A stretch of 64,000 bases of DNA. Source: Flaccisagitta enflata (lineage: Eukaryota). Where the stretch lies: assembly GCA_965153355.1 (NCBI GenBank), contig OZ231126.1, forward strand, positions 13,392,001 through 13,456,000. The letters run 5' to 3'. Below, piece after piece: positions 37,396 through 61,070 of the stretch (its first letter is position 1; every line of letters starts with the position of its first letter). The notes under the pieces were generated by a model, which saw only the letters and a list, made by a program, of their open reading frames with translations, was not told the origin of the DNA and did not search any database. The position numbers and the translations under genes are program-made.

Positions 37396-40300
37396 TTAGA
37401 GTTCAGCATCGACTTTAGAGGCTTCTGTTTCTTGGCCACAACTCCTCTCGTCACTCATCATTTCACATGTCTTTTCGGGTGCGATCTGTATTGGGAAATA
37501 GACAAAACCAGGCCGTATTCACGGCAGCATTAGTCGCGAACGAGTGGGCAGGAGCGGAAAACTTCAAAAAGTGCCTTTGTGACGGACCGACGGACGGATC
37601 GACGGATGGATTGACAGTCCGACAAAAATATAGCACGGTCTGTATAGGGAAATAGACAAAAATATAGACAGATCTGTATGGGGAAATAGACAAGAATAGA
37701 GACAGATCTGTATGGGGAAATAGACGAAACTGTAGACAGATCTGTATGGGAAAATTGTCAAAAAATATAGACAAAGTATTCCCATTACATTCCACGTCTT
37801 TTCCGCAACAATGGAAAAATAGGCAAACCACGTTATGCCCACCTGAGAAAAAAAAACAATATTGATTCAGCTTTTCTTTTCGGGTGCAATCTGTAAGTTC
37901 ACGGGATATCATAAGGGGTTGTCGCATTGGGCGTATTATCTAGATATTATCGAGATATTCCCTATATAATGTCTCGATAATTTTCCCAATGCGACAACCC
38001 CTATAGTTAGTGAGTTCTTTACTTCATCCAACAACTGTTTTTTCATACATGTAGTAAATTTCTGTTGGGATCACAATTAAAAGATACCAGATTCCTGCCT
38101 CTGATATCAATAAAGTCAGGCATTCTTAGGCTGCAAAACTCCGCCAATGCCTGATTTCGTTTAAAAACGCATCAAATCATCAACAAAATACTGACCCTGG
38201 CACATCCTTACAAAGGGGGCGTTTCTAGTCAAAGACGATCGCGTTTTGAAAGGGCCACTCGGTCGCTCGCTACGTTCGTTCGCTCGCACCGCTCACTCCG
38301 CTCACTTGCTCCGCAGCGCTCCGCTTCGCTCCGCTCGCTTCGCTCGCTCGCTCCGTTCACGGGCTCGCTCACTCACTTCGCTCACTCCCTCGTGGGACAG
38401 TTGAAATTCTTAAATATGTGTTCACACTGTTATCGCGTTTCACGGGAACAAACGCGTTTTTGGCGCTCACTAGAAACACGCCCTAAGTGATCCTATGACC
38501 ACGTCTTTTCTACGCACCTTGTTGCCTTTCCATTCCTCATCATCCGACACATTGAAATTACAAGGAAGAAGTGAAAGATATGCATTCCTGCACATACAAA
38601 ATAACAGAAAAAAATATTCTGTTTTGGATTAATTCTGCGTCTGTTTAATGAAAAGCTGTCATAAGAAAACGAATTCTTTCACGTTTGCAACGTGATATGG
38701 TGAAAGAGAAAAAGAAAGCGTTTTGGCATAAGAGATCGCAGGTGAAATAGAAGGAGGTAAACCTAGAACTTGGACATTGTTGGCCTACTTGGCCATGTTT
38801 CTGTTTCTTTAAATTGTACTCGATGTGGATAAGGATTTGGAGCTCGAACTTTTAACGCCAGCTATTACATCCTAAGAATTTGTGTCATCTTGAGATCTTG
38901 AGATTTACTTATCATATCCCAAAGTCAAGTGGTGCTGCTTGCTTTTATGAAATTGATGTGAAGCCCATTGTACTTTACCTGAATTTCTTGTTGGAAAAGA
39001 CATAAATGAATGCATCTAGAGAGGCTTGTGTCTTGGCGAAGGCTGGCGCATAGATTTGAAAGGACATTGGTACTGAATTTGGGTCTCCAAATGAGTTGGT
39101 GAATGCCACGTAGATATATGGTCCCCAGCAGAATACAGTTCCAGCTGAAACGATTGGAATGGCAAGTGCTCGATTGAACATTTTCCAGTACACAATGTCA
39201 ACGATCGTTTTCTTTATACCATGTAAGAAAAATAATTTGTAGTAAGATAAGGTAAAATAAGACATAATACACCGTCTTTGAATCGAAATGGCAAATAGTA
39301 AACCTTTGTAGCTCCAAAACTATTAGCCCAAAAACCTTCAAATTTTCAGTGAATGTTGGTAACAACTGACCATTTTGTCATGTCAAAACTCGGATTTTAA
39401 AACTGAATAGTTTGCGGTCGGTAAAACAAACAAAATATGCCCAATTTTCAGGGCTGAATTTTTTTTCTTGCTTTATTTGAGAAAACTTGTCTTTATCAAT
39501 ATACAGATGTCAAAAAAATTGAGCTAGAACTCCGGGGTTGGTCTCAAATGATAGGAAATTTTTCAGAGATTACACATTTACCTAAAAAATTGAAAAAAAT
39601 TGGATATAGATTGAGGTTATCATTGGTTTATGGCAATCATTGCTAAAATCCAAAATGTTAATCATTTGAAAATCATTCAAATCTTTATAAATACAATAAA
39701 ATAATGAAATTTTCAAGCAGAACTTATATTCATGGTTTGTAACTCTTCATTTAAGACCAACCCCAGGGTTCAAGCTTGCTTAATCAGGAAAAAAACATTA
39801 AAAGAAAAAAGATTCTTCCAAGTATAGCTGGGACAAATTGTTGTTTTTCCATAAAATTGATAGCTTTTCAATGCTTTAATGACCCCCAACCCATTCAGTT
39901 ATAAAATCTGAATTTTTTCAGGACAAAATGGTCAGTTGTTACTAACATTCACTGAAAATTTGAAGGCTTTTGGGCTAGTAGTTATGGAGCTACAAAGGTT
40001 TACAATTTGCCATTTCGATTTAAAGACGGTGTAGAATGTCAATGATTGAAATACAAAAAAAGATAAAAAAAGGATTGATGATGTCAATATGAATAACAAA
40101 TCAAGATAAAAGCTGTAATTATGAATACCAAACGCTTGACGAGCTTCCATGATGAAGTACTTGGTCTTGTTTAAAACAGTAACAATTTTTTAAATGATCC
40201 CTAAAAGAATTTGGAACTTTTATTCTTGTAAGATCCGTTACCAAAAGCTGTTATCATCATTACCAAATAAGCAAAGAGCCGTTATCAAGATCTTTTTTTC

Positions 40301-59800: not shown

Positions 59801-61070
59801 TTTTCATAGTTTAATTTGCTGCATGTGCAACTAATTGTCGAATATCATAGGAGGAATCGACCCCTAATGCTAACATTTCCTATTTACCCCTCACAAGGCT
59901 GGCCGCTGTTAACCTGCTTATGTGTACTGTGGGAGCGGGTCCACCAATCTATTCCTCATATCATCATACTTGGATGGGCGGAGAGGCCACATGTGCTGTT
60001 GATGGCTTCATTCATTATGCTGCTGGTATGATAAAACTGTGTTGTCGTCGACAAAACCCGTCTGATAATGTTTCAGTAATGAAAATGTTGCCTGTAGAGG
60101 GAAAAAGTGTAAATCCTTAAGTTAAATGAACATTCACAAAAACTGCCTTATGTCATAATAATTTCTTATGTGCCTTGACTTCAAAAACGTTTTTTTTCTG
60201 TATTTGGATTTGCACGTTGCAACCAGGTCATTTGTTAAAAATTTATTAAATATGATTCCCAACTTTCCAAATTAGACCATTCTTCCTCTGAAAAATGTCA
60301 AAGGTCCTTAGATGACAGTTTGCACAATTGTGAAAAGAATTTGGAAGTAAACGGCAATTTTGTCCTGATACTGTCATTTCTAACATTGTCATTTTTTTTT
60401 GTCATTTTTTTGAAAATCTTCATTCTATTTGTTCTCATTTTTTAGCTCACTTTTAAGACTGGAGCTAAAAATATTTCTCGCGCTTTGGGAATAAAACACC
60501 CTAAATTTGATACTTCATGCATTGTAATTCATAGGAGGAGGTCAGATATACACGCTGACGGCCATTGCAATTGACAGATTTGTCTGCATAACGAGACCAA
60601 TGTCATCTTGGAAATTAGATCAAAATCGGGCGAGCATGGTTGTTCTGGGAATATGGGTGGTATCGACAGTGTTTGCCATTTTCCCGCTACTTGGCTGGAA
60701 TAGATACGTTCCAGAAGGTGAGTTCATAATTGCTATTTACCCACCACTAGGCTAGAACAGATATGTTCCAGGTTATGAGTTTTGGCTTTGAAAAACATTC
60801 ACGAAATGTATGGATGATGATATGATATGATTTGATGTCATACAATTTGATATGATATGATTTGATATGAGGATATGCACTCTGACCTTGTTTGTGTTTC
60901 TAGGACATTATTTGTTTACATCCCAACATTCAGGTCCAATGACAACATGTGGAATTGATTGGTTCAATCGATCCTATCAAAGTCGATCCTTCATTGTCTT
61001 GCTGTTCCTAACCCAATTCATCACACCAATTTTCATAATGTTTTACTGCTATTTTCAGATCTACACTACG
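53812..61070 (+). CDS. Opsin B, paralog of opsin A, exons 1-6 (N-terminus to TM5); remainder not identified in the window
   Basis: Exons 53812-53844, 54017-54116, 58720-58801, 59898-60025, 60535-60717, 60934-61070, all GT-AG. Exons 2-6 are 100/82/128/183/137 nt, identical to opsin A. Motifs: NTT sequon, EWWVPEYGLRPSGEVP, TCAVDGF, DRF, GWNRYVPEG, PMTTCGIDWF. The TM7 Lys is not visible. Confidence 0.88.
55775..56270 (+). repeat. Dispersed repeat with TTAGCTCATTTAGCTC subunits; second copy at about 61380-61870
   Basis: Shared GTTTGTTTGAGCATGCAAATACAAGAAAACAT...GCTGCTCATCT and TTGATTTGATCTAACAA...GCAGTGACT segments; both copies lie in opsin B introns. Confidence 0.7.

Follow-up and report, generated by a model that had tools for sequence, protein, structure and literature searches.

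The window analysed here is a stretch of 64,000 nucleotides from the chaetognath Flaccisagitta enflata (GenBank assembly GCA_965153355.1, contig OZ231126.1, positions 13,392,001 to 13,456,000 of the forward strand; coordinates below count from its first nucleotide). It carries two opsin genes, gene A on the minus strand and gene B on the plus strand, which are transcribed divergently from start codons at 47085 and 53812. Their exons were modelled by tblastn against a full-length relative (P0006): all combinations of GT or GC donors with AG acceptors were screened, and the best-aligning in-frame pair was kept. A hidden Markov model (HMM) of the family, based on gene A together with six relatives, was applied to all six-frame open reading frames (ORFs) of at least 12 amino acids in the window. 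It gave 13 matches, with E values from 4e-29 to 7e-6, and the next best candidate had E = 1.1, a gap that chance cannot account for. Since the modelled exons alone were matched, the window contains no third opsin.

Gene A, which runs from 47085 to 37396, is a complete opsin gene with 10 coding exons for 371 amino acids and a stop codon. The exons measure 54/100/82/128/183/137/106/166/70/90 nt, and all nine introns are of the GT-AG type. Exon 1 (47032..47085, 54 nt) starts with the ATG at 47085, directly downstream of an in-frame stop, and encodes an N-terminal N-x-T sequon; its donor, GTAAGC, belongs to the best donor/acceptor pair against P0006. Exon 2 (46375..46474, 100 nt, E = 1.2e-12 with the family HMM) leads from the N-terminus into helix 1, exon 3 (45591..45672, 82 nt, E = 1.1e-9) from helix 1 to helix 2, and exon 4 (44912..45039, 128 nt, E = 2.2e-20) from helix 2 to the start of helix 3, including Cys110 and an Asp at site 113. 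Exon 5 (42098..42280, 183 nt, E = 4e-29) extends from the DRY of helix 3 to the sequence GWNRYVPEG, and exon 6 (41731..41867, 137 nt, E = 6.7e-23) holds the loop residue Cys187 and helix 5. The third cytoplasmic loop, which is 70% identical to that of P0006, is encoded by exon 7 (40264..40369, 106 nt, E = 3.5e-15). Exon 8 (38979..39144, 166 nt, E = 8.6e-28) contains the CWxP of helix 6, the retinal lysine of helix 7, DAFIY and NKKF; exon 9 (38518..38587, 70 nt, E = 6.9e-6) contains the end of helix 8, LLPC and an acidic patch. The donor of exon 9 was picked by homology, the alternative being read-through to a stop codon at 38470. Exon 10 (37396..37485, 90 nt including the stop) encodes a tail with the VxPx-like sequence I-A-P-E, which aligned with (Q/K)VAP(E/A) of the xenopsin1-like proteins described below. 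The Pfam model 7tm_1 matched exons 4, 5 and 6, and exon 5 (E = 2.8e-7) was above its curated cut-off.

Residues are numbered as in rhodopsin, through HMMER alignment to solved structures. Gene A aligned with opsins from end to end, over the seven helices of the rhodopsin-family fold. The helix-7 lysine in the F-A-K-T-Q of exon 8 (rhodopsin site 296) aligned with the AK of all relatives, and Cys110, Cys187, DRY, CWxP and the N-terminal sequon were kept. An acidic residue was found at both counterion sites, so that Asp113 and Glu181 are two counterion candidates. The codon for Asp113 lies at 44936-44938 in gene A and at 60001-60003 in gene B; all five xenopsin1-like proteins have Asp there, a Lingula protein discussed below has His, and rhodopsin has Glu. 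At the position of NPxxY, the form found in most G protein-coupled receptors (GPCRs), gene A has DAFIY, and it has NKK where ciliary opsins (c-opsins) have NKQ. At the end of helix 8 a palmitoylation-type Cys is followed by the acidic patch and then by the C-terminal I-A-P-E, the counterpart of (Q/K)VAP in the relatives, which in turn aligned with the C-terminal QVAP of rhodopsin (HMMER). Judged by its sequence, gene A is whole and looks functional.

Gene B starts at 53812; six of its coding exons lie in the window, the last ending at 61070 before a GT donor. These exons measure 33/100/82/128/183/137 nt and align with opsins over helices 1-5; the five complete introns are all GT-AG, intron 2 being 4.6 kb long. 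Exon 1 as modelled (53812..53844, 33 nt) starts with the ATG at 53812, encodes an N-T-T sequon and is followed by the donor GTAAGT. There is an alternative start without this exon, an in-frame ATG at 53975 within an extended exon 2 ORF (53975-54116). Exon 2 itself (54017..54116, 100 nt, E = 1.9e-8) has a second AG acceptor at 54011, 6 bases ahead of the modelled one. Exon 3 (58720..58801, 82 nt, E = 6e-7) is followed by exon 4 (59898..60025, 128 nt, E = 1.8e-12), where the helix-2 site of Asp83 has Asn and site 113 has Asp, and by exon 5 (60535..60717, 183 nt, E = 8.1e-26), with DRF and GWNRYVPEG. Exon 6 (60934..61070, 137 nt), also matched by the family HMM, is next to the donor GTAAAA. Gene B probably continues past the window end at 64000. 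A 182-bp tandem repeat (62996-63981; 5.4 copies, 90% match) lies in what would be its intron 6.

Exons 2-6 of the two genes have the same sizes (100/82/128/183/137 nt) and the same phases (0,1,2,1,1,0). Over these exons the proteins are identical at 90 of 210 amino acids (43%), or 14/33, 13/26, 15/42, 25/60 and 20/45 exon by exon, and the nucleotide sequences of the single exons agree at 46-54%. Of the third codon positions 143 of 210 differ, and of the first and second positions 168 of 420. In DNA comparisons, matches were left only at the start of exon 6 and in some interspersed repeats common to introns. Because so little likeness is left in the DNA, protein identity is down to 43% and third-position differences are many, the duplication that separates A from B must be old. 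An earlier note, made from the sequence alone, had described two divergent opsin genes with ATGs 6.7 kb apart, identical exon sizes and phases, an exon 2 identity of 14/33 and an old divergence. The rebuilt exons reproduce all of this, with 6,726 bases between the start codons. Its further claim, that the genes arose from one another by an inverted duplication, fared less well, as shown by the tree below.

The spacer between the start codons (47086..53811) contains (CT)n and (GA)n(AC)n arrays, 20-bp satellites and a poly-T or T-rich tract. Its A-side and B-side upstream halves had no similarity beyond chance matches of 13-18 bases. The note's idea of a regulatory region shared by both genes may hold, with nothing in the sequence that speaks for or against it. 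One family of 20-bp satellites occurs in the spacer at 51408-52166 and, partly inverted, at 57030-57317 in intron 2 of gene B. An AG dinucleotide is found a few bases upstream of both start codons (within 47086-47100 and 53800-53811). Chaetognaths use spliced-leader trans-splicing, and these AGs could be trans-splice acceptors. A burst of tandem duplication, with many pairs of paralogues about 10 kb apart, is described in the text of a chaetognath genome paper (PMC12460157); the head-to-head pair with its 6.7-kb spacing fits this pattern, provided that one copy was inverted.

An exhaustive phmmer search with exon 5 of gene A against 1.84 billion representative sequences gave 21 matches. The top match was a fragment of 74 residues with 75% identity, and the top full-length protein was P0006, with 43% identity over exon 5. 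A word-indexed search of longer proteins with the same exon gave one match only, a Panulirus opsin. The genes seem to be unannotated, because neither exon 5 search gave a full-length protein that closely resembles A or B. Four close relatives of P0006, among the 8 other proteins listed for it, were 66-78% identical to it. One of them, P0028, is the xenopsin of Spadella cephaloptera (QNM38092.1, A0A7G9IS10). We refer to P0006, P0026, P0027, P0028 and P0029 as the five xenopsin1-like proteins, of which P0028 alone is named as a xenopsin. The spliced protein A was 49-52% identical to these five, 34% to the Lingula protein XP_013382905 (P0014) and 23-33% to sequences of rhabdomeric-opsin (r-opsin) or rhodopsin type; the corresponding values for B were 50-53%, 35% and 24-38%. 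Among solved structures, P0006 scored best against bovine rhodopsin (178 bits), followed by squid rhodopsin (156) and the spider Kumopsin1 (136). When the xenopsin1-like alignment served as a search profile, its six inputs came first, followed mostly by non-opsin GPCRs such as the opioid and PrRP receptors (120 of 147 listed), with no further named xenopsins. No relative was among the 229 and 256 pattern matches from two scans of metagenome contigs.

A maximum-likelihood (ML) tree was computed from 25 rows: A, B, the five xenopsin1-like proteins, the Lingula protein, a Nucella protein, r-opsin-like sequences, two of rhodopsin type and non-opsin GPCRs. A, B and the five xenopsin1-like proteins formed a clade with 98/96 support and the topology (B,(A,(five xenopsin1-like))), in which A and the five had 95/89 support. 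Gene A had the longest branch of the clade (0.81). The Lingula and Nucella proteins joined next (89/94). The rhodopsin-type and r-opsin-like rows fell outside the clade, and the r-opsin-like ones (P0012, P0001, P0019 and others) made up a separate group. When A and B were forced together, the cost was 3.5 log-likelihood units, a constraint that was not rejected (AU test, p = 0.103), so that the B, A and xenopsin1-like lineages are close to a trichotomy. Thus, in the best tree, A is nearer to the xenopsin1-like proteins than to B, against the claim that inverted duplication of one gave rise to the other; as far as the tree can tell, they need not be direct copies of each other. Two fragments from other marine DNA, P0002 and P0022, have an A-like exon 5 with 75% identity that grouped with A at 100/100 and lost its likeness at the same exon end. 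The A lineage is thus conserved beyond this genome.

The sequences support the assignment of both genes to opsins of the xenopsin kind, not the rhabdomeric kind. This was the view of the earlier note, and it is borne out by the 98/96 clade, by the Spadella xenopsin as the nearest named relative and by the lack of an HPK-type motif. Of the motifs that the note had quoted, GWNRYVPEG and C-x-x-DGF-x-x-Y are present in A and B, and NKKFR, LLPC and NKIAP in A. The A-x-x-x-FG motif that it placed in the third intracellular loop is different: the only stretch that fits, A..FGDP, lies between helices 6 and 7, in an extracellular loop. The idea of a lineage-specific photopigment subfamily gained no support, since A and B belong to the chaetognath xenopsin group already described. 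Assignment to r-opsins was rejected on the NKK and Asp113 of gene A, in place of an HPK-type motif and Tyr113, and on the separate grouping of the r-opsin-like rows. Assignment to c-opsins was rejected on the position of the rhodopsin-type rows outside the clade, on NKK rather than NKQ in A, and on intron positions that, as a set, were not those of c-opsins.

Published descriptions of xenopsins agree with this assignment in part. According to Wollesen et al. (2023, PMC10952353), both Spadella xenopsins and one from Pterosagitta have DPILY and NKR in place of NPxxY and NxQ. The DAFIY and NKK of gene A share with these the Asp and the NK and differ in the Pro and the Arg. For clade A xenopsins, where chaetognath sequences were placed, Rawlinson et al. 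(2019, PMC6805122) describe an NxQ in helix 8 together with VxPx at the C-terminus. Gene A has NKK for NxQ and I-A-P-E without a strict VxPx, and accepted chaetognath xenopsins also depart from the signature, with NKR. The Lingula protein XP_013382905.1 appears as 'rhodopsin GQ like A' in the data set of Doring et al. (2020, PMC7529461, supplement 1), and, from the list of Lingula entries, it is probably the Lingula xenopsin of the literature.

Introns 1-6 are common to A and B. In rhodopsin numbering, intron 1 lies before the EWW block (phase 0), intron 2 in codon 51 (phase 1), intron 3 in codon 78 (phase 2), intron 4 in codon 121 (phase 1), intron 5 in codon 182, the Gly codon after PEG (phase 1), and intron 6 between codons 229 and 230 (phase 0). 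Gene A has three more: intron 7 in codon 259 (phase 1), intron 8 in codon 314 (phase 2) and intron 9 in the tail (phase 0). In genomic ORF fragments of relatives, both A-like (P0002, P0022) and xenopsin1-like (P0003, P0004, P0007), the likeness stops at the PEG boundary, so at least that intron is common to the group. For comparison with c-opsins we used P0013, a vertebrate rhodopsin-like genomic fragment whose likeness spans exactly residues 122 to 177. The A/B intron at codon 121 (exon ends 44912/42280 in A and 60025/60535 in B) coincides with the c-opsin exon start seen in P0013, and the post-PEG one lies 5 codons away from where the P0013 exon ends. We take rhodopsin intron 1, at the Gly121 site, to be in phase 1 as well; the other A/B introns are presumably 3-5 codons off rhodopsin introns or in another phase. 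Xenopsins are reported to share only two conserved introns, the first near, and not at, the second c-opsin intron (PMC5648526), and the A/B intron at codon 182 fits the text on this first intron, the positions having been published as figures. The conserved introns of xenopsins and c-opsins have been reported as non-overlapping.

From these results we consider it quite probable that the window holds two paralogous xenopsin genes of the chaetognath type, divergently transcribed from ATGs 6.7 kb apart, gene A whole and gene B with six exons in the window. Their structures, family membership and key residues are established here. Protein A would bind 11-cis-retinal through its helix-7 lysine, and light would isomerise the retinal. 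The active receptor might then couple to a Gi/o-type G protein, after the example of a flatworm xenopsin, for which Gi coupling has been shown (PMC6805122). The VxPx-like motif in the tail may direct the protein to the modified cilium of the chaetognath photoreceptor. The A and B lineages would have left the eye-expressed xenopsin1 lineage long ago, the likeliest origin being a tandem duplication with one copy inverted.

Several observations weigh against this picture. The first comes from RNA. Reads were placed on 37160-40640, the region of exons 7-10 of gene A, from four runs: X20, polyadenylated RNA with the same organism label and tissue unstated, of which about 6% (12.2 million records) was read; X10 and X13, marine metatranscriptomes; and X1, DNA. 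In X20, X10 and X13, RNA depth was zero on exons 7 and 8 and their unique flanks, and the bins with exons 9 and 10 had depth only where they overlapped repeats. All RNA on 37160-40640 falls in interspersed high-copy repeats. No spliced transcript, whose lack the note had named as a refutation, was seen there. The negative is a weak one and does not speak against expression, because only about 6% of X20 was read, its tissue is unknown, and contigs drop rare transcripts; by a rough estimate, the X20 test would miss transcripts below about 1 transcript per million (TPM). Second, both the Asn and the Pro of NPxxY are lost in gene A, which also has the longest branch, and its signalling could be altered or lost. 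Third, in gene B the DRY is replaced by DRF and the helix-2 Asp by Asn, and tblastn and the family HMM found no exon 7 or later exon of this gene in the remaining 2.9 kb to 64000. Fourth, our tree contains one source-named xenopsin, with mollusc, flatworm and bryozoan xenopsins and cnidopsins left out. With sampling this thin, the placement of chaetognath sequences in xenopsins rests on published trees (PMC6805122; Doring et al. 2020, PMC7529461; PMC10952353), as far as these sources describe them.

The read data also bear on the sequence itself. Contigs from X1 cover the exons of A in 37160-40640 at about 90- to 140-fold. The share of sampled window words was 0.61 in X1 and 0.29 in X2, both runs with the organism label, and small in several marine metagenomes. 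Shares of 5-7% in four marine metatranscriptomes were not accepted as exon content, the RNA in X10 and X13 being that of interspersed repeats. The segments 37160-37627, 38213-38484 and 39266-40084 are repeats with a very high copy number in X1, and marine metatranscriptomes contain transcripts of them. At 38835-39269, second contigs in X1 differ from the window by 11 of 173 and 7 of 293 letters, which suggests high heterozygosity or a second haplotype; five listed differences of the latter contig fall within 39176-39202, inside the intron that precedes exon 8 of A.

The alternative that survives best is that A, B or both are orthologues of the second chaetognath xenopsin, that is, Spadella xenopsin2 (OM687487) and the second copy of Pterosagitta draco, and that only the genomic arrangement is new. 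We regard this as possible and as deserving real weight, since two xenopsin copies per species have already been published (PMC10952353) and the A-like fragments P0002 and P0022 place the A lineage in more than one species. However, Sce-Xenopsin2 is described as having DPILY and NKR like xenopsin1 (PMC10952353), whereas gene A has DAFIY and NKK. Moreover, a xenopsin1-type gene is expected elsewhere in the genome, with which A and B would make at least three lineages. A Tara survey, in its text, gives two chaetognath xenopsins (PMC12584886).

It is improbable that A, B or both are on the way to becoming pseudogenes, as silent or decaying duplicates. The lack of RNA on exons 7-10 of A in three runs, the long branch of A with the NP of NPxxY gone, and in gene B the DRF, the Asn83 and a 3' half that is not visible in the window would fit such decay. 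On the other hand, the frames are intact over 10 and 6 exons, 14 of 14 complete introns are canonical, and the retinal lysine, the disulfide pair, CWxP, Glu181 and the N-glycosylation sequons are retained. An unconstrained copy with 43% identity and saturated third positions would have lost its frame long since, and an A-like exon is 75% conserved in other DNA. The RNA test, for its part, covered about 6% of one run with tissue unknown.

To the same small degree, A and B may be opsins that bind light and do not signal, for example a photoisomerase that regenerates the chromophore for xenopsin1. In gene A the N and P of NPxxY are gone and NxQ is replaced by NKK, and an isomerase role has been suggested for clade-B flatworm xenopsins with degenerate G-protein motifs (Rawlinson et al., PMC6805122). 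Yet the eye-expressed chaetognath xenopsin1 itself is reported to have DPILY and NKR (PMC10952353), so a degenerate motif is the norm in this family, and gene A still has DRY and a VxPx-like tail, both described as absent from the xenopsins proposed as isomerases (PMC6805122).

Finally, we see very little probability that A and B belong to the c-opsins or to an opsin class still without a name: P0006 was best against vertebrate rhodopsin among solved structures, the exon 4/5 intron is at the Gly121 codon, where the P0013 likeness also begins, and one recent phylogeny counts xenopsins within an extended c-opsin group (PMC12584886), but the clade joins Lingula 'rhodopsin GQ like A' rather than rhodopsin (89/94), the three published phylogenies cited above put chaetognath sequences in xenopsins, and the post-PEG intron is 5 codons off the P0013 exon end, which fits the remark that the first xenopsin intron is close to the second c-opsin intron and does not coincide with it (PMC5648526).

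If they are two xenopsins of the chaetognath type, as we prefer, A and B are new members of a known opsin family. The literature as available to us attributes one or two xenopsins and a peropsin to chaetognaths. Their eye has a unique photoreceptor with a modified cilium, and xenopsin1 is reported as the only opsin located there so far; it is expressed in eye photoreceptors, where it labels lateral cells only, and Wollesen et al. (2023) ask which opsin the remaining eye cells use (PMC10952353). In the same body of literature we found no description of a head-to-head xenopsin pair, of the gene structure of a chaetognath xenopsin or of a copy with DAFIY. The word 'opsin' is absent from the text supplements of the chaetognath genome paper (PMC12460157), whose spreadsheets could list further models. 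The two strongly diverged genes are concrete candidates for the opsin of the xenopsin1-negative eye cells. They also give a first look at xenopsin gene structure in chaetognaths, with nine coding introns against two conserved in other xenopsins, and this structure bears on the use of intron positions for separating xenopsins from c-opsins. A far-reaching version would have at least three ancient xenopsin lineages in chaetognaths, with A and B as pigments of the xenopsin1-negative anterior and posterior eye cells or of extraocular ciliary receptors, and with the xenopsin-type intron after PEG combined with the c-opsin intron 1 site (Gly121, phase 1) in the same genes. In this full form it is doubtful, and we put it forward only tentatively. 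Should one copy turn out to be the xenopsin2 already known, or should the genes be silent, the result comes down to routine annotation of an unannotated genome.

The surroundings of the pair are rich in microsatellites and satellites, with small exons, and G+C content is about 31-55% across 2-kb bins of the window. An intact ORF for a 352-residue transposase of the Tc1/mariner type (36101-37156, plus strand; DDE_3 and HTH_Tnp_Tc3_2) lies 240 bases beyond the stop codon of gene A. Another ORF (26154-26633, plus strand) matched DUF4200 (E = 7.6e-10); it probably represents one exon of a coiled-coil, cilia-related gene in the neighbourhood. A long GAT-type repeat at 32500-32841 (plus strand) reads as poly-Asp and was matched by tblastn to the poly-Asp tails of P0006 and P0014, by composition only.

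Features shared with the xenopsin1 group are an N-terminal block, EWW..G.RPSGEVP, the C-x-x-DGF with Asp113, GPMTTCG(I/V)DWF and, as seen in gene A, a third cytoplasmic loop that is almost the same, FGDP.S.P, AK(T/S)QA, D-x-x-x-Y, NK(K/R)FR, the Cys at the end of helix 8, the acidic patch and the (V/I)AP tail. A and B differ from this group in an identity of only 49-53%, in the DAFIY, NKK and long branch of A, and in the DRF and Asn83 of B. The Lingula anatina protein XP_013382905.1 (P0014), labelled 'rhodopsin, GQ-coupled-like', shares the loop-3 pattern, FGDP.S.P, the helix-8 region and a poly-Asp tail, whereas NPIIY and NQQ are retained in it and site 113 is occupied by His. Bovine rhodopsin (Protein Data Bank 1f88) can be aligned with them in numbering at the key sites and has the ciliary-targeting motif QVAP at its C-terminus. 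In contrast, it belongs to another opsin class in the published trees and in ours, has NPxxY and NKQ intact and Glu at site 113, and is encoded by a gene with 4 introns, as opposed to the 9 of gene A.

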